Positions 2,032 to 46,576 of a stretch of DNA of 64,000 nucleotides are shown one piece after another (within the stretch, counting starts at the first letter, position 1; the number at the start of each line of letters is the position of its first letter). The position numbers and the translations under genes are program-made. This DNA comes from Bacteroidales bacterium (GTDB lineage Bacteria; Bacteroidota; Bacteroidia; Bacteroidales; P3): NCBI GenBank assembly GCA_017429685.1, contig JAFROL010000013.1:31994-95993 (forward strand), given 5' to 3'. The notes below the pieces were generated by a model that did no database searches, was not told the origin of the DNA, and worked only from the letters and a program-made list of their open reading frames with translations.

Positions 2032-3147
2032 TTACTTGTTGGCTTTTTCGAAGTCCTGCATACACTGGACGAGAGCCTCGACGGCCTCGACGGGGCAAGC
2101 GTTGTAGAGGCTGGCGCGGAAGCCACCAACCGAACGGTGACCCTTGATGCCGACCATACCGCGCTCCTTGGCGAAGGCCATAAAGGCATCCTGCAGGTTC
2201 TCACGGCCTTCGGCCATAACCCAGCAGTGGTTCATAATCGAGCGGTCTTCCTTCTCGGCCGTGCCGCGGAACATCGAGTTGCGGTCGATTTCCTCATACA
2301 GCATAGCGCTCTTCTTGAGGTTGATCTTCTCCATTTCCTTGACGCCGCCAATGGTGTTCTTGACCCACTTCAGGGTTTCGTGCATCACGAAGATGGCGCT
2401 TACCGGAGGAGTGTTGAACATCGAGATGTTCTTGGCCTCTTCGGCAGCGTGGGTGCGGAAGTCGACCATCGTGGGCAGCGGATTCATATACTGGCGGTCG
2501 GTGATCTTGCCGAGGATGTCTTTGCGGACGATGTAGAAGGTGACACCGGCAGGGCCGACGTTCTTCTGGGCACCACCGTAGATCAGACCGTACTTCTTAA
2601 CGTCGACGGGACGGCTCATAATGTCCGAGCTCATATCGGCGACGAGCATAACGTTGTTGATCTCGTTGGCGGCGAAGTCCTTGCGGATCTCGGTACCGTA
2701 GATGGTGTTGTTGGTCGTGATGTGGAAGTAGTCGGCGTCGGCAGGAACGGTCCAACCCTTCGGGATGTAGCTGTAGGTCTTGTCCTCGCTGCTGGCGACG
2801 ATCACGGTCTCGCCGAAGTTCTTAGCCTCTTTGGCAGCCTTCTTGGCCCAAACGCCGGTCTGCAGGTAGGCAGCCTTCTTGTTGAGCAGGTTGGCGGGAA
2901 CATCCATAAAGCCGGTGCTGGCACCACCGCCGAGGAAAAGGATCTCGTATTCAGCGGGGATGTCCAAAAGGTCGCGCCACAGCTGGCGGGTTTCTTCCAT
3001 AGTGCGCTCCCAGCCGGGGGTGCGGTGGCTTATCTCGAGCAGACCGATGCCGGTGTTGTCGAAATCGCGGATGGCATTGATCGTGGATTCAATGGCCTCT
3101 TTGGGCAGGACACAGGGACCTGCGTTGAAATTATAAGCTGTTTTCAT
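2032..3147 (-). CDS. serC: phosphoserine aminotransferase
   Basis: 371-aa ORF beginning MKTAYNFNAGPCVLPKEAIE..., a typical SerC N-terminus. It lies next to serA. Confidence 0.9.
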   Translation of the reverse strand: MKTAYNFNAGPCVLPKEAIESTINAIRDFDNTGIGLLEISHRTPGWERTMEETRQLWRDLLDIPAEYEILFLGGGASTGFMDVPANLLNKKAAYLQTGVWAKKAAKEAKNFGETVIVASSEDKTYSYIPKGWTVPADADYFHITTNNTIYGTEIRKDFAANEINNVMLVADMSSDIMSRPVDVKKYGLIYGGAQKNVGPAGVTFYIVRKDILGKITDRQYMNPLPTMVDFRTHAAEEAKNISMFNTPPVSAIFVMHETLKWVKNTIGGVKEMEKINLKKSAMLYEEIDRNSMFRGTAEKEDRSIMNHCWVMAEGRENLQDAFMAFAKERGMVGIKGHRSVGGFRASLYNACPVEAVEALVQCMQDFEKANK

Positions 3148-3216
3148 CTTTGATTTTTGTTTTAAAATGGTTATATTTAATATTTTATTAATAATCTTGC
3201 CCTTAAAAAGGAATTA

Positions 3217-3224
3217 CAAAGTTA
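3217..3224 (-). promoter_or_regulatory. candidate Bacteroidota -7 promoter box (TAACTTTG on the minus strand) for serC
   Basis: The plus strand reads CAAAGTTA, whose reverse complement TAACTTTG fits TAnnTTTG. It is about 70 nt upstream of the serC ATG. Confidence 0.4.
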
Positions 3225-3520
3225 CGCCTTTTTTTAATATTAATGTATAAATCATTAATATTTTTTTCAAAAAGTTTTCAATGCTTTATCAACACCGTCG
3301 CCGCCACCCTCGCCACAAGGCACCCGAAGCTCCACTTCCCAGCCGAAGCCCAACGACGCACAGCGGAAAGCAACGGCACCCGGCGACGCATTCCGACAAA
3401 CAACGCCAACTGGCGGCACATAATGAAAGCAAACGGCACATAATGGCATACAGTCAGACCATACGACAAAAACGAACACGTAAACCACAGAATATCACCA
3501 CCTTTACTACACCTTCTTTA

Positions 3521-3617
3521 CCCGTTGTACGCTATTTGTACGCTATTTGTACGGTATTTGTACGCTTTTTTACCGTACAAGTACCGTACATATAGCGTAC
3601 ATATAGCGTACAACGGG
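3521..3617. repeat. GTAC-iteron palindrome, copy 1 (imperfect)
   Basis: The left arm is CCCGTTGTACGCTATTTGTACGCTATTTGTACGGTATTTGTACGC, with 11-nt units containing GTAC. The right arm is its inverted copy with one TATTTG/TATATG difference per unit. It is homologous to 43299..43405 and preceded by a C/A-rich flank (about 3290-3520). Confidence 0.9.
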
Positions 3618-3619
3618 CA

Positions 3620-4200
3620 GTGCAAGCCGGCCTGGGCCGGGCTGGAAACGATTTCCGACGGCAGGCACACGGAAAAAATTTTTTCGTTTGACCGAAAAAA
3701 AATATTTTTTTGTGAACAGCCGATGTTCAAACCCGCCGTCGCAAAGGCCGAAAACAATGAAAATGTGAACACTAAAAAAAACAGGAAAACACCTTGTTGC
3801 TATCAATCAAAAAGTTATGGCAACAGATTGAATTTCTGACTTTTACAAAGCCCGACACAAGCACTTTGCTACGACACAGCGACTTAAAAATTTGAACAAA
3901 AAAAGTGCAAAAAACCATCAATTTTTTTTCAAAAATATTTTTTTGTTCAAAATATAATTGTATATTTATGGCCCTGAAAAAAAGTTAATGAAATGTTAAT
4001 TTATTGTCAAATAAAGTTTTTTAGAGATAAAACATTTTTCGGGCCCCAAGGGGGCGATTCGGTTTAGTAAAAATATCCGAAATGTGCAAATTTTTTTTCA
4101 AAATTCCATTAAAAAAAAATGTGAGAACTTTGCATCAGAAACAAAAAAAACACCAGAATTAGGTAAGTCGTATAAAATCACACTGAAAGAAATCGTCAAG
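3620..4200. other. AT-rich region upstream of dnaA, candidate oriC/DUE
   Basis: It contains many A7-A9 and T7-T9 runs. The heptamer (G/T)TGAACA or its complement recurs at about 3712, 3724, 3765, 3892 and 3944. Gene orientation switches here, with serC/serA leftward and dnaA rightward. There are no perfect TTATCCACA boxes. Confidence 0.3.
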
Positions 4201-4202
4201 AG

Positions 4203-5651
4203 ATGCAAAACTATAAGACTGTTTGGGCAAACTGCCTGAAAATAATCAAGGAGAATCTTGGACCGGAAAACGAGCAAGTGTACAGGACCTGGTTTGAGCC
4301 GATTGTCCCCATCCAACTGGAGAACAACGTGCTGACAATCCGAGTCCCCAGCCAGTTTTTCTACGAGTGGCTGGAAGAGCATTTCATCGACCTGCTGAAG
4401 CGCACCATACGCCTGCAGCTGGGCCCCAACGGTATGCTGAAATACAGCATCCTGATGGACACCAGTATCGCTGGCTCGCCGATCACCACCAACCTGCCTT
4501 CGGCCGGACGCCAGGCCACAATCAACAAGGCCAAAAACGTGCCTCTGATGATCGACGGCGAAGAGTGCGGACGCGACATACCTACCAACCCCGTCGTCAT
4601 TGTAGGCATACGCAAGCAGAAGATTCCCTCGCAGCTGAACGGCAACTACACGCTCGAGAACTTTGTGGAGGGCGACTGCAACAGCCTGGCTCGCGCCGCC
4701 GGATATGCCGTGGCCGAAAACCCGGGCCGCACCGCTTTCAACCCCCTGCTGCTGCACGGTGGCGTAGGTCTCGGCAAGACCCACCTGGCTCACGCCATTG
4801 GCATCAAAGCCAAAGAGTTGCACCCCAACGATACGGTGCTGTACGTGACTTCCGAGCAGTTTCTGCAACAGTATGTCGAGGCTGTGCGCAACAAGAACAC
4901 CAACGATTTTGTGCACTATTACGAAATGATCGACTTCCTGATTCTTGACGACATCCAGTTCTGGGCCTCGAAGGGCACCCACACGCAGGAGGCTTTCTTC
5001 CACATTTTCAACTACCTGCACCAGCGCAACAAACAGATTGTCATCACCAGCGACAAGGCTCCGTCGGAACTCGGCACCCTCGAGCCGCGCCTGCTGTCGC
5101 GCCTGAAATGGGGTCTGGCCGCCGACCTCGGCACTCCCGATGTCGAGACGCGCATAGCCATCCTGAACCAGAAACTGGCCAACGACGGCATCGAAATGCC
5201 AAAGGACGTTATTGAATATATTGCATACAATATTAATACCAACGTGCGCGAGCTGGAAGGCGCCCTGGTGTCGCTGATAGCACAGTCGTCGCTGAACCAC
5301 AGGGAGATAACCATCGACCTGGCCAAGCAGATGATTGACAAGTTTGTCAAAAGCACTACACGCGAGATCACGATCGACTATATCCAGAAGGTGGTGTGCG
5401 ACTACTTCAAGCTGCCCCTCGACAGCATCCAGTCGCCCACACGCAAGCGCGAAATCGTGCAGGCCCGCCAGCTGACGATGTATTTCGCCAAGAAAATGAC
5501 CAAGACGTCGCTGGCTATGATAGGCCTTCAGTGCGGCAACAAGGACCACGCCACCGTGCTCCACGCCTGCAAGACCGTCGCCAACCTGAACGAGACCGAC
5601 AAGCAGTTCCACTTCTGGGTCGACGAGCTGGAGAAGAAGTTCAAAGAATAG
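4203..5651 (+). CDS. dnaA: chromosomal replication initiator protein DnaA
   Basis: 482-aa ORF with Walker A GGVGLGKTHL and a C-terminal DnaA DNA-binding region (HATVLHACKTV). Confidence 0.95.
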   Translation: MQNYKTVWANCLKIIKENLGPENEQVYRTWFEPIVPIQLENNVLTIRVPSQFFYEWLEEHFIDLLKRTIRLQLGPNGMLKYSILMDTSIAGSPITTNLPSAGRQATINKAKNVPLMIDGEECGRDIPTNPVVIVGIRKQKIPSQLNGNYTLENFVEGDCNSLARAAGYAVAENPGRTAFNPLLLHGGVGLGKTHLAHAIGIKAKELHPNDTVLYVTSEQFLQQYVEAVRNKNTNDFVHYYEMIDFLILDDIQFWASKGTHTQEAFFHIFNYLHQRNKQIVITSDKAPSELGTLEPRLLSRLKWGLAADLGTPDVETRIAILNQKLANDGIEMPKDVIEYIAYNINTNVRELEGALVSLIAQSSLNHREITIDLAKQMIDKFVKSTTREITIDYIQKVVCDYFKLPLDSIQSPTRKREIVQARQLTMYFAKKMTKTSLAMIGLQCGNKDHATVLHACKTVANLNETDKQFHFWVDELEKKFKE

Positions 5652-11985: not shown

Positions 11986-13302
11986 TTATTTCACCGGATG
12001 GTCGGCGTGGAATTTCTCCAAACGCTCTTTCAAATCGGGGAACTGGTCGCGAAGCACAAGAGCCACGCAAGCACGGATGCCCTGCTTGTGGCTGCCGGTG
12101 ATATCGAGGGCTATAGCACTGATACCATAGCGGATAAGTTCGTTGAGCAGGTCGACGCCTTCATAGCCGGGATAGCAGAAAGTGAAGTAGAAACCGTCGC
12201 CGATGTCCTCGCCCATATCTTTGTCGTAGACGATGTAGAATCCGTTGTCGGTAAACATTTTCTTCATAATGCCAGCCTTTTCGCCGTACTCCTTGATGTC
12301 CTTGACGAAGTTGAACGTACCGTCGTTGGCGCCCTTAAGCATCGCGGCCATAGCGTACTGCACGCTGTGGGCGGTACCGGAGCTGAGGCAGTAGAGCGTG
12401 CCAAAAATGAGGGCGCGGCCCAGTTGCGTCTGGCTGTAGTAGCGTGCCAGGTCGGGGCATTCCATATTGAACAGCTTGGGGCTGCAAATCATCATAGCAA
12501 TGCGCTCGCCGGCATAGCTGAACGACTTGCTGCCGCTGATCATCAGCACGTAGCGGTCGGTATACTTGGCCACGGTGGGCTGGAAAGGAGCCTTGCCGGG
12601 GACGCTGTAGTCCTTACGGAAATCCATCAGGAAATAGGCATCATCCTCGAGGACGACGACGCCGTACTTGTTGGCCATCTCGCCGATAATCTGCAGTTCG
12701 TGCTCGGTGAAGCAGAACCAAGCGGGATTGTTGGGACTACTGTAAATCAGGCAGGCAACGTCGCCGTCTTTAAGTTCTTCTTCAAGTTTTTCGCGCAGCT
12801 TGTCGCCACGGTATTCGTAGACGTCGAAGGACTTCATCGGGATGCCGAGAACGCGGCACTGCTGCTTCTGGACGGGGAAGCCGGGGTCGATGAAAAGCAC
12901 CTTGGTCTTCTTGGCATCGTAGCGCGTCAGGGTCAGGAACGAGGCGAAACCGGCCTGCATCGAGCCGACGGTAGGCACGCAGCATTCGGGAGTCACGTCG
13001 ATATCAAGGAAGTTCTTGACGAAGCGTGCAGCCTCCTGCTTGAAATCGGCGGTGCCGTAGATTTCGGGATAGATGCTGGCCACGCCGTTGCGCAGAGCCT
13101 CGATCTGGGCTTCGACGCCAACCTGCGGGGCAGGAAGGCCAGGGATGCCCATCTCCATCTTGACAAAGCGCACGCCAGTCTCCTTTTCGACATCCTGAAT
13201 CATCTTGCGCATCTCGCGGATGCTGGCCTTGCCAGGGTTCTGGATTTTATTGGCCGCAGCAATGCGGTCAATCGTTTCTTTCTGTATAGGTATTTGAGTC
13301 AT
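11986..13302 (-). CDS. pyridoxal-phosphate-dependent aminotransferase (class I/II)
   Basis: 438 aa with the PLP-lysine context SGSKSFSYAGERI and the NPAW / DDAY motifs of fold-type I aminotransferases. Confidence 0.8.
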   Translation of the reverse strand: MTQIPIQKETIDRIAAANKIQNPGKASIREMRKMIQDVEKETGVRFVKMEMGIPGLPAPQVGVEAQIEALRNGVASIYPEIYGTADFKQEAARFVKNFLDIDVTPECCVPTVGSMQAGFASFLTLTRYDAKKTKVLFIDPGFPVQKQQCRVLGIPMKSFDVYEYRGDKLREKLEEELKDGDVACLIYSSPNNPAWFCFTEHELQIIGEMANKYGVVVLEDDAYFLMDFRKDYSVPGKAPFQPTVAKYTDRYVLMISGSKSFSYAGERIAMMICSPKLFNMECPDLARYYSQTQLGRALIFGTLYCLSSGTAHSVQYAMAAMLKGANDGTFNFVKDIKEYGEKAGIMKKMFTDNGFYIVYDKDMGEDIGDGFYFTFCYPGYEGVDLLNELIRYGISAIALDITGSHKQGIRACVALVLRDQFPDLKERLEKFHADHPVK

Positions 13303-14524: not shown

Positions 14525-16504
<1,980 letters not shown>

Positions 16505-41934: not shown

Positions 41935-42043
41935 GATAATTCGTTAATTCGTTAATTTTTCAATTTGTTAGTCATTTACGTTATTCGTTATTCGTTCTTC
42001 GTTCTCCGTTCTTCGTTCTCCGTTCTTCGTTCTCCGTTCCCCT
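41935..42043. repeat. composite octamer (GTTAATTC type) plus nine-heptad (TTCTCCG/TTCTTCG) array filling the hpt-FGE spacer
   Basis: Octamers span 41935-41974 and heptads span 41981-42043. On the minus strand the array reads GGAGAACGAAGAAC... starting at the stop of the upstream gene. Confidence 0.9.
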
Positions 42044-43118
42044 ACTCTTCCTCCGGCTCCTCCACTGAGTCAAGCACCAGGCGGAAACCGTGGAAACCAT
42101 AACCATAGTCCGGCTGGTACCAGCTGCGGTCGCTGACCGTGCAGCCCCACGACGGACTGTTCAGGCTGCCGCCACGCAAAATGCGGCTGTCGCCGTGCTT
42201 CGGACCACGCGGATTGGTCTGATCCTCACTGCTGTAGGCACCATACCAGTCCGAGCACCACTCCCACACATTGCCAGCCATATCGTGCAAACCCAGCTCG
42301 TTGGGCTTCTTGCGGCCCACAGGATGCGTGTAGTTGCCCGAATTCATACCGTACCACGCCACAGCTCCCGGATCGCCGTCCTGGCCCGGATACACATAGC
42401 CCTTCGACAGGTTGCCACCACGGGCGGCAAACTCCCACTCGGCCTCGGTAGGCAGGCGGAAACGGTAGCCCGTCATCTGCGACAGGCGCGCAATGAACAT
42501 CTGAACGTCGTTCCACGACACCTGCTCCACAGGCAGACTGTCGTTGTATGTCCAGCGGCTCGGATTGTCGCCCATCACCTCCTTCCACAGGCGCTGCGTG
42601 ACCTCGAACTTGCCCATATAGAACGAATCGACCGTGACCTTATGTGTCGGAAATTCAGCCTCATAGTTATGCTTCGCACTCCGCGGACGCGTGCAGCCCA
42701 TAGTGAAAGTGCCGCCAGCGACAGGCATCATCCTGAACTTCATATTGTTCACCTTGATGTCCACCGAACCGTCGTCGACCTCCACCGAAAAGCGAATCAG
42801 CGTGTCCGAGGCATTAAAACCCGTCGAATCAGGCTCATAGGGCAGCAGGCGCAAGTCGGGCAAGTCGTAGACAATAATCTTCTTGCCCTTGCCGGCCTTC
42901 ACATCCTTGCCGATATCGCCAGCCATATTCTCAATATAGCCGCCGTAATAGCGACCGCCGTCAATCGACACACACACCCTTATGTTGGCATCCTTGCTCA
43001 GATCGTAGGTCAGCGTGACCTCCTTGTCCTGACGGGTGAAAGCAACATTCGATATATTTTGCGCGCCCGCGAGGCCGCAAAACGAAAGCATCGTACAGAG
43101 TAAGAATCTAAATTTCAT
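42042..43118 (-). CDS. formylglycine-generating enzyme (SUMF1) family protein with N-terminal extra domain
   Basis: 358 aa with a signal peptide and the FGE-sulfatase motifs RLPTEAEWEFAARGG, GNVWEWCSDWY and RILRGGS. Confidence 0.85.
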   Translation of the reverse strand: MKFRFLLCTMLSFCGLAGAQNISNVAFTRQDKEVTLTYDLSKDANIRVCVSIDGGRYYGGYIENMAGDIGKDVKAGKGKKIIVYDLPDLRLLPYEPDSTGFNASDTLIRFSVEVDDGSVDIKVNNMKFRMMPVAGGTFTMGCTRPRSAKHNYEAEFPTHKVTVDSFYMGKFEVTQRLWKEVMGDNPSRWTYNDSLPVEQVSWNDVQMFIARLSQMTGYRFRLPTEAEWEFAARGGNLSKGYVYPGQDGDPGAVAWYGMNSGNYTHPVGRKKPNELGLHDMAGNVWEWCSDWYGAYSSEDQTNPRGPKHGDSRILRGGSLNSPSWGCTVSDRSWYQPDYGYGFHGFRLVLDSVEEPEEE

Positions 43119-43156
43119 ACCTTTATCTTATTTGATGGCACTTGTATCCAAAATTG

Positions 43157-43164
43157 CAAATATA
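43157..43164 (-). promoter_or_regulatory. candidate -7 promoter box TATATTTG (minus strand)
   Basis: The plus strand reads CAAATATA. It is 39 nt upstream of the ATG at 43118. Confidence 0.4.
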
Positions 43165-43298
43165 CAAAAAAAATCAATATCCGTTGCCAAAAAACCAAAA
43201 AACACACAGAAAAAAAACCAGACCGCCCTACCACAAGGACCTCAAAGCCGGAAACCGTCCACAAAACGCATCCGCAAACCACTGACTGACAGTACCCT

Positions 43299-43405
43299 CT
43301 TCGCCCGTTGTACGGTATATGTACGGTATATGTACGGTATTTGTACGCTTCGAAAGCGTACAAATACCGTACATATACCGTACATATACCGTACAACGGG
43401 CGAAG
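43299..43405. repeat. GTAC-iteron palindrome, copy 2 (perfect)
   Basis: The sequence is CGCCCGTTGTACGGTATATGTACGGTATATGTACGGTATTTGTACGCTT-cga-inverted copy. The arms pair perfectly over 52 bp (43299-43350 with 43354-43405). The units are 11 nt. It lies about 95 nt past the nrdG stop. Confidence 0.95.
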
Positions 43406-43497
43406 GAGGTGTTAAGGATCAGCCGTTTAGGTGGTGTGAATTATGGCCGGCATTCCAGCTCGCTGGCAGGGCACAGAATATGGTGTACCCCCCAGAT

Positions 43498-43962
43498 TCA
43501 TTTGCGCCAGAAAAGCGAGGTGATGTCCTGCATCGCGCCGTCGCTGACGCGATAGAGCCGCTGGTTGGTCTTGGGATTGCGCAGGTTGCCCAGATGCGCA
43601 AGGTAGGGTCCGAGCTTGACATAGTCGAAATTGCGGAGGTCGACAGCCTTCGAAAGCAACGAACGGCCACTGTACCAGGCTGTCCGCAGCCACGGATAGC
43701 GCTGCCGCAGATGCTGCATCAGACCGTCGACCTCGTCGGGATGGGCATCGCCACCCATAACGGCAACACAGGTGATGTTGCCGTCGCAGCGGTCGACAAG
43801 GCTGTCGACGGCGTCGGTCGTCAGAGGCTGCCCGTCGTCGCGCCAAAGGTATGGCGAATGGCATCCGGGGCAACGGCAGGGGCATCCGCTGACGTTGACG
43901 GCAAGGGCCACTTCGCCAGGAATCTCCTGAAACACTATGTCGCTATTGGTGTATTTGAGCAC
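43498..43962 (-). CDS. nrdG: anaerobic ribonucleoside-triphosphate reductase activating protein
   Basis: It has the radical-SAM cluster motif CPCRCPGCHS. I trimmed the start to the GTG at 43962 (MLKYTNSDIVFQEIP...), because the upstream part of ORF 43498..44046 is encoded by the heptad repeat. Confidence 0.8.
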   Translation of the reverse strand: MLKYTNSDIVFQEIPGEVALAVNVSGCPCRCPGCHSPYLWRDDGQPLTTDAVDSLVDRCDGNITCVAVMGGDAHPDEVDGLMQHLRQRYPWLRTAWYSGRSLLSKAVDLRNFDYVKLGPYLAHLGNLRNPKTNQRLYRVSDGAMQDITSLFWRK

Positions 43963-43987
43963 GGGATATTGGTTAACGCGTTTGTCA

Positions 43988-44067
43988 GTGACCAGTGACC
44001 AGTGACCAGTGACCAGTGATACGAGCGCGTTCGTGTCACAGGTCACTATTCACCATTCACTATTCAC
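43988..44067. repeat. heptad arrays in the nrdD-nrdG spacer
   Basis: (GTGACCA)x4 plus GTGATAC on the plus strand (43988-44022). On the minus strand, five GTGA at a 7-nt pitch (TCAC at 44036, 43, 50, 57 and 64 on plus). The first of these contains the nrdD stop codon. There is a central imperfect hairpin. Confidence 0.9.
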
Positions 44068-46163
44068 AGGTTGGCTGTGGCGTAGTGGCGGCGGGCAGCC
44101 TCCTCCTGGCGAGGCATCGAGAAGTTGCTGACACGCTTCAGGTAGCCGATGATGCGCGTCATATAGTCGACATTCTTGGAATGGCAGTGCGGACACTCCT
44201 TGAGGTAGCGCTTGTCGATGTGGCCACAGTCGTTGCAGATGGTGTTGGGAATGTTGAAAGTGAAATAGTTACAGCCTTCCTTGGCAGCCACGTGCAGCAA
44301 TTTCAGGTACTGCTCCTGCGACAGGTGCTCCTCGAGGTTGCAGTGCAGCGCGCTGCCTCCGGTGAGATGCTCGATGTAGGGCTTGCCGTGGAGACGGAAT
44401 TTTTCGAGCACAGAGATGGATGGGTCTTCGACGATGTAGAAATAGCTGTTGTAGCAGTCGCGCGGGACGAAGTAGCCGTCCTCGCGGTCCCATTTGGCGT
44501 GCTTCACACCGACATTCTCGGCGGGAATCATCTCGCAGTTGAACATCACCTCCTTGGTGCGGTACTCCTTGTTCTTCTGCTCGACCAGCCCGAGCACGGT
44601 CTGGACGAAGTTTCGGTAGTCGGGGTTATCGTTGATAGTGAGACCCATAAACTCGGCGGCTTCAACCAATCCGTTAACTCCGATGGTGAGGTACTGGCGG
44701 TTGATGTTGATATAGCCGGCATCGAAAAGGGGCAGCATTCCGTGCGACGCGAGCTCCTTGAGGTTCTCGTTGTAGGCCAACTGCACCTTGTGGCACAGGT
44801 CGATGATGTCGGTGAGGAACTCGCGATAGTCCTTCTTGTTGTTGACGGCATACTGTATGCAGCGGTTCAGGTTGATGGTGAGAACGCTTTTGGAGCCCGT
44901 CGAGACGCCGCCGGCGCCAAGGGTGTAGCTGAAGCCGTTGTCGGTGATTTCGTTACGCAGACGGCAGCAGCTGCTGAGCGAGTCGGCGTTGTCGCTCATA
45001 TAGGTGAAGAAACTGTGGCCCGCAGCGTACATCTCGGCGGTGAAGTCGGCCATCTCGGGGTCGACCATCTCGCCGTCCTTGCTGAGCAGCGCCATCGTTT
45101 CGACAGGGAAGGTGAGCACGGCCTTGGTGCGCTCCTCGTTGAACCAGCGCATAAAGCGCTTCTGCAGCCACTTGAGGCCTTCCCAGTCGGGTGCGCTGCC
45201 GTCGGGGAAACGGAACTCGCCGAAGAGGCTGTCGAAATAGGGCTTGTCGTAATAGGCTATGTTCCAGAACACGGCCTGATAGTTGCGTGCGCCGGTGGGC
45301 TGGTTGAGGGTGTAGACGATCTGCTCGAAGCAGTCGGTGATGACCTTGTCGAGCGTGCGGTGCTTGAGGCTGAGGTCGACCACCTGGTCGGCGCGGGTGT
45401 AGTAGTCGGTGCCGTAGTCCTTGCCGATGAAGTAGTTGAGGTACATCAGGAATTCGGGCGTGGCGCAAGCTCCGCTGAGCATACTGCTGACCATAAAGAC
45501 CATATTGACGAATCCGCCGCAGAAGGACTTGAGGTTGGTGGGCGCCGTCGAGTTGCCGCCGATTGAGGCTGTGCCGCTGAGCAGCCAGGGATACATCGTG
45601 ATGCTGGCGCAATAGTTGGCCAGCGATGTCTCGTCGTTCTTGTAGATGAAATGGTGTGTAAGCAGCTCTATATACCTATCGGCCAGCTCTTTGCCGAACA
45701 TCGCCTTGATGCGGTCGGTGAGCAGGCGGCGGTTGAGGCGGATGAACCCCGACTTGGGCAGTTCGCCGATAAGTGTGGCGATGTTCTTGTGCTCGACATT
45801 GGCGTTGGCGTCGTATTTTGAGCCTGTGGCGGCATTGGCAGCCTGGCAGTACTCGGAGAGGAACTTCATCTTCTCCATCGTCTCGCGGTCCTCGGTGTGG
45901 CGCTGCCGGTAGAGCATAAAACTTTTGGCGACATCGAAATACTGCTCTTTCATCAGTGCCACTTCGACCTGGTTCTGAATCTCTTCGACGGTGATGCCAT
46001 TGTGGATGTCGAGATGGGTCAGGATTTTGGACAGGGCACCCAGGTCGACAGGCTTGTCGAGCGAATTGAAGGCTTTGATGACGGCGTTCATTATCTTGTC
46101 GAGCGAGAAGCGTTCGGCATTTCCGTCACGCTTGGTGATTGTCAGTATATTGCTACTTTCCAT
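44064..46163 (-). CDS. nrdD: anaerobic ribonucleoside-triphosphate reductase
   Basis: 699 aa with an ATP-cone-like N-terminus, a C-terminal Zn ribbon (CNDCGH...CPHCHS) and the glycyl-radical tail RIIGYLKRVSNF. Confidence 0.95.
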   Translation of the reverse strand: MESSNILTITKRDGNAERFSLDKIMNAVIKAFNSLDKPVDLGALSKILTHLDIHNGITVEEIQNQVEVALMKEQYFDVAKSFMLYRQRHTEDRETMEKMKFLSEYCQAANAATGSKYDANANVEHKNIATLIGELPKSGFIRLNRRLLTDRIKAMFGKELADRYIELLTHHFIYKNDETSLANYCASITMYPWLLSGTASIGGNSTAPTNLKSFCGGFVNMVFMVSSMLSGACATPEFLMYLNYFIGKDYGTDYYTRADQVVDLSLKHRTLDKVITDCFEQIVYTLNQPTGARNYQAVFWNIAYYDKPYFDSLFGEFRFPDGSAPDWEGLKWLQKRFMRWFNEERTKAVLTFPVETMALLSKDGEMVDPEMADFTAEMYAAGHSFFTYMSDNADSLSSCCRLRNEITDNGFSYTLGAGGVSTGSKSVLTINLNRCIQYAVNNKKDYREFLTDIIDLCHKVQLAYNENLKELASHGMLPLFDAGYININRQYLTIGVNGLVEAAEFMGLTINDNPDYRNFVQTVLGLVEQKNKEYRTKEVMFNCEMIPAENVGVKHAKWDREDGYFVPRDCYNSYFYIVEDPSISVLEKFRLHGKPYIEHLTGGSALHCNLEEHLSQEQYLKLLHVAAKEGCNYFTFNIPNTICNDCGHIDKRYLKECPHCHSKNVDYMTRIIGYLKRVSNFSMPRQEEAARRHYATANL

Positions 46164-46322
46164 TTATAATGTATTTTTTTCATTTTTACACAAAAAAGAG
46201 TTCAGCGGACCCTCCTTACGGACTTGGTTTGCTGGCTGTGCGACAAAAGCTTGCATATGGGGCTGCGACGGCGAAAACGGACGACGAGGACAATTGGCTT
46301 TTGGCGCGAAAGCATTGTCGTT

Positions 46323-46500
46323 GGTCGAGGCCGGTCTCCTGGCTTGTCCGACGGGCAACGCCTTCTCGGACCCATCGGTCCAATGGCTGTTGTTGCCCCA
46401 CGTGGGTGAACAGACTCCCCCACCCGACATCACAGTTGCGCGACAGCTCGCGAATTGCACGCGATTCCCTCCCCGACAGATGCGGGGCTTTTCCTCGACC
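46323..46500 (-). promoter_or_regulatory. cobalamin (B12) riboswitch aptamer
   Basis: On the minus strand, the 5' half of P1 (GGTCGAGG) is followed by GGGGAGGGAATCGCGTGCAATTCGCGAGCTGTCGCGCAACTGTGA, then AGCCATTGG...GGGTCCGAGAAGGCG, then the B12 box AAGCCAGGAGACCGGCC and the 3' half of P1 (CCTCGACC). These segments line up with the E. coli btuB leader motifs as I recall them. Confidence 0.85.
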
Positions 46501-46576
46501 TACAAAAGTGTCAAAGTACTCATTAAGAATGAATAGTGGCATTTTTTGCCTCTATAGGCCTCTTGTTTTGACAATG

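Follow-up and report, generated by a model that had tools for sequence, protein, structure and literature searches.

Small palindromic repeats dispersed between bacterial genes have been described in several forms, of which REPINs, the atypical structures that accompany TnpA_REP transposases of subclass 2.6, and MITEs (miniature transposable elements with inverted repeats) such as BrickBuilt are closest to the element presented in this study. The element is a palindrome at positions 43299 to 43405 of a 64,000-nt stretch of DNA (hereafter, the window) from a Bacteroidales bacterium (GenBank assembly GCA_017429685.1, contig JAFROL010000013.1, positions 31,994 to 95,993 of the forward strand), where it lies between nrdG, the activase gene of the anaerobic ribonucleotide reductase (RNR), and a gene of the FGE-sulfatase family. 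We consider it about 65% probable that the full region of homology, 43262-43446, is one copy of a dispersed, non-coding palindromic family of the MITE/REPIN kind that spread at some time in the past and has been vertically inherited since. Its members occur only in one lineage of uncultured Bacteroidales from the ruminant gut, and the family was previously undescribed; its element measures approximately 110-115 bp in the core and approximately 180 bp with the looser outer arms, and is most likely selfish rather than a replication iteron or a dedicated terminator.

Similar to REPINs (Bertels and Rainey 2011, PMC3116915), which are symmetric, hairpin-forming units dispersed over extragenic sites, the window element is about 100-110 nt long, and the two kinds of repeat share a copy number in the tens to hundreds, compensatory changes in the hairpin, and long vertical persistence. 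In its high-copy, dispersed, extragenic distribution the element agrees with REP sequences and REPINs in general. On the other hand, a REPIN consists of conserved ends around a looser spacer, whereas the window element is a near-perfect stem of 43-57 bp closed by a loop of 1-3 nt, and its arms are composed of tandem 11-nt units. Neither the GT[AG]G tag nor the CGTC tag is present; i.e., GTAG, GTGG, and CGTC are absent from the arm ends, where a conserved foot (...GCCCGTT) is followed by GTAC-headed 11-mers. The arms form no REP sub-hairpins, and with a spacer of only 1-3 nt the element does not take the shape of two REP units plus a spacer. The host also differs, being a member of the Bacteroidales, and no RAYT was found within approximately 8 kb of the retrieved copies.

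TnpA_REP subclass 2.6 (RAYT group 5) occurs mostly in Bacteroidetes and is associated with atypical dispersed structures that lack GT[AG]G (PMC6006769). The window element, compared with these structures by description and not by sequence, resembles them in its phylum and in its dispersed, non-canonical palindromic copies without GT[AG]G, whereas the published structures flank a Y1 gene and have weaker secondary structure (PMC6006769); the hairpin in the window is extremely strong, with no Y1 gene in reach. The BrickBuilt MITE of Porphyromonas gingivalis (PMC4596501), also from the Bacteroidales, is likewise restricted to its species or lineage, always intergenic, present in approximately 19 copies, and made of short tandem repeats. 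However, in BrickBuilt the 23-nt "bricks" are arrayed directly and accompanied by a leader and a tail carrying small inverted ends, and promoter elements are present (PMC4596501), whereas the window element consists of two inverted arrays that form one long perfect hairpin in which no promoter consensus was seen. As in other MITEs, the element is small (approximately 115-185 nt), non-coding, and provided with terminal inverted repeats, the inverted repeat running throughout its length; a full-length insertion sequence (IS) with the same ends and a transposase was not found, and no solo arms were present in the retrieved stretches. Correia elements of Neisseria and the enterobacterial ERIC/IRU sequences are small, co-transcribed palindromic insertions whose long stems can serve as RNase III substrates or modulate mRNA stability; they have defined terminal inverted repeats and target duplications (TA for Correia), and their stems are much less perfect. 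Such defined ends were not found for the window element.

Quasipalindrome correction by template switching (PMC7202029, PMC8604942) is a process rather than an element; it perfects inverted repeats and can invert the spacer, which fits the co-varying arms and the cga/tcg centres described below but not the origin or spread of the family. Two traits are distinctive: the arms are built of units one helical turn apart, and a second, unrelated family of repeats in RGIG6188, a genome with 18 or more copies of the element, shares this architecture.

Structure of the palindrome and its dispersed copies

The sequence-only reading described a perfect palindrome with 52-bp arms and the loop cga, and this description holds throughout: the two 52-nt arms (Table 1) are 100% complementary, and when two mismatches are allowed the pairing reaches 43294-43410 (57-nt arms, 96%). 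Each arm is laid out as CCCGTT, two copies of GTACGGTATAT, GTACGGTATTT, and GTACGCTT, i.e., three 11-nt units of the form GTACGGTAT(A/T)T followed by a partial fourth, with a spacing of exactly 11 nt. The 17-mer GTACGGTATATGTACGG, with up to 3 mismatches, is found 12 times in the window, compared with 0.08 expected from shuffles, and all 12 matches fall in two places, 3527-3611 and 43310-43394. The repeat structure of the palindrome is far beyond chance.

The predicted RNA fold of the locus (231 nt) is one long hairpin of -146 kcal/mol (z = -18), and the fold of the DNA strand has an energy of -72.7 kcal/mol (z = -16). The palindrome is a single continuous stem in this prediction, and its arms have no sub-hairpin of their own. 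The outer arms of 43262-43446, which are of the type ...AAAC-CTGAyyrACAG-yACC-yyCTyyGCCCGTT on both sides in the arm alignment, pair as well in the RNA fold. Open reading frames (ORFs) across the element are spurious and match no family. A scan of the window at Rfam gathering scores returned a cobalamin riboswitch only, with no match at the palindrome, and an E-value scan of the locus returned only sub-threshold generic models of long-hairpin miRNA precursors; a literature search with the exact sequence found no papers on it. The earlier statement that perfect palindromes of this length are normally unstable in bacteria is too strong for 107 bp: in E. coli, the inviability that depends on SbcCD affects palindromes from roughly 150-200 bp upwards, and hairpins the size of REPINs do persist.

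A scan with GTACGSTAYWTGTACGSTAYWTGTACG over one genome per GTDB species gave 23 stretches, 21 of which belong to the Bacteroidales metagenome-assembled genome (MAG) RGIG6188 from sheep rectum; the two other genomes gave unrelated single-strand matches only. RGIG6188 is a fragmented assembly in which many contigs end inside the element, and approximately 18 distinct copies were counted after merging the split sides (L002/L018, L011/L014, and L006/L007). A looser scan of metagenome contigs, judged to be from ruminant gut by the contig names, added approximately 26 further family loci. The proposal that the palindrome is one of several copies is supported. No family member was found in a scan of viral contigs, in which the pattern matches were unrelated direct arrays, and no BLAST match was found among 72,556 plasmids or 50,697 phages; an origin from a phage or plasmid was rejected on these grounds.

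A family profile (nhmmer) built from 14 copies, with homology over approximately 180 nt, matches the window at exactly two places, i.e., the palindrome and an imperfect copy near dnaA (copy 1; Table 1). The profile finds one copy per locus and no isolated single arm. In every copy, each arm contains 3 + 2/3 tandem 11-nt units of GTACGSTATWT, the number of units is constant, and the GTACG core is invariant or nearly so in every unit. The conserved centre of 110-115 nt has a mean identity of 92% between paralogs; the outer 40 nt on each side have 58% identity, compared with 54% for unrelated flanks, and the outer arms are of at least three types that are often unlike on the two sides of one copy. 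Farther out, no relation exists between the flanks of one copy and those of another (54% identity when aligned globally, no better than unrelated sequences). All copies are intergenic, and the neighbouring genes encode, among others, the DNA polymerase III alpha subunit, MutS, a class I tRNA synthetase, glycoside hydrolases, and transporters. The name "iteron" in its replication-origin sense does not fit: the copies are dispersed over the chromosome beside housekeeping genes, with no rep gene nearby and no plasmid or phage match.

Symmetry and age of the arms

Differences between the copies fall mainly at positions 6 (G/C) and 10 (A/T) of the first two units, in the outer stem, and at the centre. 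In the alignment of 36 copies, 91% of the cells are paired. The polymorphic pair 26/100 is GC in 19 copies, CG in 15, and unpaired in 2, and the pair 37/89 is CG in 21, GC in 10, and unpaired in 5; the observed covariation score was reached by none of 500 column shuffles. Among 22 non-orthologous loci, the 43-nt core arms are perfect in 14, and the states of the two arms are associated at both G/C sites (Fisher p = 2e-5 and 0.004). The core mismatches are for the most part located at the variable unit positions, with exceptions mainly in the degraded copy of L012 and in copy 1 of the window. Compensatory changes are also common in REPIN hairpins (PMC3116915).

Orthologous copies are common to contigs whose flanks are 82-99% identical, and several of them are still perfect; the perfection is therefore not a sign of youth. 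Between orthologs, the core changes about as fast as the flanks. Of the explanations offered by the sequence-only reading, recent formation is not supported, as strains share orthologous copies in flanks of down to 82% identity, whereas homogenisation is supported, as the two arms change together from copy to copy and perfection is retained in old orthologous copies. The perfection most likely reflects continuing arm-to-arm homogenisation by hairpin or template-switch correction. If the reading is true, these long palindromes have been kept perfect over evolutionary time and offer a natural test of palindrome maintenance, in which arm co-variation separates palindromes that are kept symmetric from those that were recently made.

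Template switching is known to homogenise the arms of inverted repeats and to invert their spacers (PMC8604942, PMC7202029). In the course of events that we propose, the common variants (G/C at position 6 and A/T at position 10) would result when tandem units within one arm undergo conversion or slippage. The two variable positions are exactly those that distinguish unit 3, GTACGGTATTT, from GTACGCTATAT, and this would explain why only those two states are seen. The arms would be made symmetric again by intramolecular templating, i.e., by a hairpin template switch at replication, by mismatch correction in the hairpin, or by regeneration at transposition, and such re-equalisation would be the reason why most copies are perfect though not young. 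The same pattern would be expected if selection acted on a hairpin or if each transposition regenerated the palindrome. In one copy (L053, 2620-2680), GTACAG stands in all four units of one arm and GTACG is retained in the other; this G-to-A change in every unit of one arm looks like a concerted change among tandem units or strand-specific damage.

Proposed spread of the family and alternative explanations

In the favoured explanation, the element would have spread in the past to many unrelated intergenic sites and been inherited vertically since. The mobilising enzyme would act in trans, and the leading candidate would be a Bacteroidetes-type TnpA_REP/RAYT (subclass 2.6). Several observations weigh against this explanation. 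The window, and the genes up to two away from each of 28 copies, yielded no transposase, RAYT, or other mobilising candidate: a Pfam scan of the 47 window ORFs contained no Y1/HUH, DDE, or other transposase, and that of 74 ORFs near the 28 copies contained no candidate except an IS1595 transposase beside the copy in L058. Searches of 861 kb by phmmer, with E. coli TnpA_REP and IS608 TnpA as queries, gave no match, and regular expressions for the HUH...Y motif gave no Y1 candidate among the 7,293 six-frame ORFs of these 861 kb; with these searches, no Y1 transposase (PF01797) was found in the window or within up to 8 kb of any retrieved copy. In addition, no solo arm, and so no parent IS, was present in approximately 130 retrieved stretches, every family match being a complete palindrome or one cut by a contig end. 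Neither a target-site duplication nor exact ends were found when left flanks were compared with reverse-complemented right flanks or in the pair L009/L017, which has long outer homology in common; the ends cannot be fixed exactly, and the outer arms are of several types. No empty site was recovered from the nrdG relatives compared, and we infer mobility from the dispersal only. The two A/T variable sites do not co-vary significantly across the 22 non-orthologous loci. Finally, all of the data come from metagenomes assembled from short reads, and such assemblies are broken or folded back at this repeat, so that some internal states and the orientation of the loop may be choices of the assembler.

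The IS1595-family (ISXO2-like) transposase gene of L058 (13604-14518, minus strand) lies 163 nt from a palindrome copy at the contig end, and a gene for a KilA-N protein lies behind it. It was rejected as a parent IS, as it seems to have its own inverted repeats (12348-12364 and 14555-14571).

An origin of the symmetry, or of the palindrome as a whole, from fold-back of a de Bruijn graph at the repeat is very improbable, even though such events do occur in these data. In L056, the 118-nt "perfect" arms (1-239) extend to the contig start and duplicate L016 flank sequence, which is a fold-back artefact; many contigs are interrupted within the element; in L086, the right flank of L016 is connected with the L023 left flank, and L064 has only one flank in common with L045/L063. 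The last two unite flanks that are apart in other contigs, resemble mis-joins, and are either these or products of real recombination between copies. However, the window copy has distinct coding flanks (nrdG and the FGE-family gene), the loop junction recurs across dozens of independent assemblies and samples, and 8 of the 22 independent copies were assembled as imperfect, i.e., symmetry is not forced. Different copies have different arm variants, each linked to its own left and right flanks, and a graph that merely retraced one arm could not connect them to a real right flank. The evident source, an ENA scaffold of 278.9 kb (L024), is identical at the locus, and a contig from an independent sample (L026) agrees from the right arm across the loop into the left arm, where it breaks after 16 nt. 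The palindrome itself is safe against doubt about the assembly. Its centre is cga in some orthologs and tcg in others (L020/L131 and L003/L091); k-mer assembly with k at or below the arm length cannot phase the loop with respect to the flanks, and the two centres were therefore not counted as evidence of flipping.

As a sub-case of the favoured explanation, the element may be a REPIN proper, the cognate repeat of a single-copy RAYT (TnpA_REP, probably subclass 2.6 / RAYT group 5), and would then move at the replication fork in the form of a single-stranded hairpin. We regard this as possible but doubtful. The element shares with REPINs its dispersed and extragenic sites, hairpin formation, vertical persistence, and compensatory changes (PMC3116915), and the link of the Bacteroidetes subclass 2.6 to dispersed atypical structures without GT[AG]G (PMC6006769) points in the same direction. 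The failure of phmmer with the two queries, regular expressions, and Pfam to detect a Y1 enzyme in the window or within approximately 8 kb of the copies argues against it, as do arms that lack both a REP-like sub-hairpin and the GT[AG]G or CGTC tag and a hairpin that is extremely strong where the structures of subclass 2.6 are weaker (PMC6006769). More speculatively, this Bacteroidales lineage could harbour distinct "iteron-armed" palindromic replicators, with arms of short units one helical turn apart (the 11-nt GTACGSTATWT units of the present family and the 10-nt AGTTAAGGGA units of the second family in RGIG6188), in which the unit arrays would be read as double-stranded DNA by a multimerising protein of neither the RAYT nor the IS200 type and new copies would arise through a fold-back or hairpin-templated step, perfect by construction. 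If true, miniature elements of bacteria would be mobilised here by a mechanism that has so far not been described for them.

The regular arrangement of the GTAC arrays invites an explanation by host function, in which a nucleoid-associated protein, a regulator, or a methylation-sensing protein binds them and the copies are kept for chromosome organisation or regulation. The exact 11-nt spacing, which corresponds to a helical turn, the constant number of units, and the GTACG core that is invariant or nearly so in each of them are consistent with such binding sites, as are the copy 564 nt upstream of dnaA and the inverted GTACG-type 11-mer arrays at unrelated metagenomic loci, one of which is in a divergent promoter region. 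Nevertheless, we regard this explanation as unlikely: the 92% identity extends over the whole element, including non-GTAC positions and the outer stem, which indicates copying rather than convergent sites; the neighbouring genes have no common functional theme; and the family is confined to one narrow lineage. A promoter-proximal bias was also rejected. The raw tally of spacers (approximately 9 divergent, 14 tandem, and 1 convergent) becomes approximately 5, 11, and 2, respectively, after collapsing orthologs and merging split contigs, and is not significant.

The position of the element behind nrdG could instead mean that it is dedicated to the transcript end, i.e., a hairpin for terminating or stabilising the nrdDG mRNA and, likewise, the mRNAs of other upstream genes. 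It lies 51-92 nt past the nrdG stop with no other terminator between, its RNA hairpin is very stable, and a T-rich stretch follows approximately 70-110 nt downstream on the gene strand. However, the lack of a U-tract that the sequence-only reading had pointed out was found here as well: no T-run follows the palindrome on the minus strand, where the foot of the stem continues into GAAGAGGGTACTG, and a scan with a terminator consensus found none at the palindrome and none between the nrdG stop and the element, which is thus not a canonical U-tract (intrinsic) terminator. Many copies lie between divergent genes, where no transcript ends, the nearest nrdG relatives are without the element, and a palindrome would act equally on both strands; taken together, a dedicated role of this kind is quite improbable. 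If nrdDG transcription reads through into the element, the resulting RNA hairpin of approximately -146 kcal/mol could block 3' exonucleases, be cut by RNase III, or hinder the polymerase. An influence on the 3' end of the nrdDG mRNA or on the region upstream of the FGE-family gene is plausible, but a terminator or RNA-stabiliser effect on nrdDG is probably incidental, a side effect and not the reason for the element, and the consequence for the nrdDG and FGE-family genes is modest.

If the favoured explanation of a dispersed MITE/REPIN-like family is true, a well-defined and easily searchable repeat family is added to a phylum with poorly catalogued miniature mobile DNA, and TnpA_REP subclass 2.6 of the Bacteroidetes, an orphan class, or else another enzyme, gains a concrete candidate for its partner. 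The element is also a hazard to assembly, as it breaks and mis-joins short-read MAGs of rumen Bacteroidales, which explains contig ends, fold-backs, and possible chimeras.

The nrdDG locus, copy 1, and other repeat arrays

The coordinates of the palindrome, copy 1, and the surrounding features are listed in Table 1.

Table 1. Features of the palindromic element and its surroundings (positions in the window)
Feature	Position	Strand	Remarks
Full span of repeat-family homology	43262-43446		Perfect core and imperfect outer arms on both sides; nhmmer 181 bits
Left perfect arm	43299-43350		CTTCGCCCGTT; units 43310-43320, 43321-43331, 43332-43342; partial unit GTACGCTT 43343-43350
Central triplet cga	43351-43353		cga, tcg, or C-N-G in other copies
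Right perfect arm	43354-43405		Exact reverse complement of 43299-43350
Copy 1	3482-3639		Core approximately 3514-3618, imperfect: 5 mismatches in the 43-nt core arms, TTTTT centre
C/A-rich tract left of the palindrome	43134-43325	+	G/T-rich on the gene strand; last ~37 nt overlap the family outer arm
TATATTTG	43157-43164	-	Match to TAnnTTTG, read from the sequence
FGE-sulfatase family gene	42042-43118	-	Signal-peptide-like N-terminus
nrdG	43498-44046	-	Radical-SAM activase (in the sources, anaerobic RNR activating protein)
nrdD	44064-46163	-	NRDD and ATP-cone domains

The setting between nrdG and the FGE-family gene, given earlier as approximately 95 nt past the nrdG stop, was reproduced with a distance of 92 nt from the stop to the perfect palindrome and approximately 51 nt to the edge of the element; the start of the FGE-family gene is 143 nt from the element edge. 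The nearest relatives of nrdG (68-75% identity) have spacers of 21-190 nt after nrdG, other genes downstream, and no element, so that the element does not belong to the ancestral make-up of the nrdDG operon. The nearest homolog reaches only 75% identity, without retained synteny or alignable spacers, and the comparison shows no more than the absence of the element from these relatives. The nrdG ORF is listed at 182 aa, compared with 153-160 aa for all of its homologs, which align to approximately 85% of the ORF, and the true start is probably approximately 25 codons downstream of the first in-frame start. Directly upstream of nrdD, a cobalamin riboswitch (46312-46512, minus strand) scores 76 bits, compared with a gathering score of 31.5; with this riboswitch, the B12-independent anaerobic RNR operon appears to be B12-regulated. 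On the other side of the palindrome, TATATTTG lies approximately 40 nt upstream of the ATG of the FGE-family gene, outside the palindromic element. It matches TAnnTTTG, the -7 promoter consensus of Bacteroidetes, and would be a putative promoter box on this basis, with the palindromic element upstream of the FGE-gene promoter.

The left flank of the palindrome had been described as C/A-rich like that of copy 1. This composition was found for both copies: 43134-43325 is the strongest C/A-rich stretch of the window, the copy 1 flank (3265-3539) is one of those that rank next, and the left tracts that adjoin the two copies are the most C/A-rich non-coding stretches of the window. However, the tract is not part of the element. 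Only 43262-43298 belongs to the family outer arm; beyond approximately 40 nt the flanks have only a low-complexity resemblance, most other copies are without such a tract, and several "C/A-rich" flanks of other copies are coding sequence. The rest of the tract is locus-specific. A short motif, CATCCGCAAAnCAC, recurs near the element edge in the second window copy (the palindrome), L008, and L012. Duplication of the palindrome and its flank as a gene module was rejected, as the class-V aminotransferase (serC-like) gene beside copy 1 and the FGE family are unrelated.

Copy 1 is located between this serC-like gene (2032-3147, minus strand) and dnaA (4203-5651, plus strand), in a spacer of 1,055 nt (3148-4202). 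The serC-dnaA spacer is a classic place for oriC, and repeated TGTGAACA motifs were observed in it at approximately 3721 and 3765. A link of copy 1 to oriC was nevertheless rejected; no cluster of E. coli-type DnaA boxes was found, and the GC skew within the window is uninformative.

Other metagenome contigs contain inverted arrays of GTACG-headed 11-mers with different unit tails. One group (L061 6840-6945, also L062, L070, L097, L112, L115, L119, and L120) lies approximately 300 nt from a C-terminal fragment of Mg-chelatase that comes after a large serine recombinase, and this region may be the end of an integrated element. No common binding protein was found among the neighbours of this group and of L099. 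The latter belongs to a second group (L099 4345-4405, also L054, L107, and L126), and its palindrome is in a divergent promoter region with a Bacteroidetes-type TAtcTTTG box.

The second dispersed family of RGIG6188 mentioned above, which occurs in the same MAG lineage, is unrelated to the GTAC palindrome and absent from the window. In its inverted arrays, 6-10 tandem 10-nt units (AGTTAAGGGA / TCCCTTAACT) surround a small hairpin at the centre; the sites are L004 281-480, L010 ~1100-1200, L014 ~4984-5120, L079 ~4749-4905, L011/L096 ~1230-1290, and L121 ~436-475. In L004, the array directly adjoins a GTAC palindrome.

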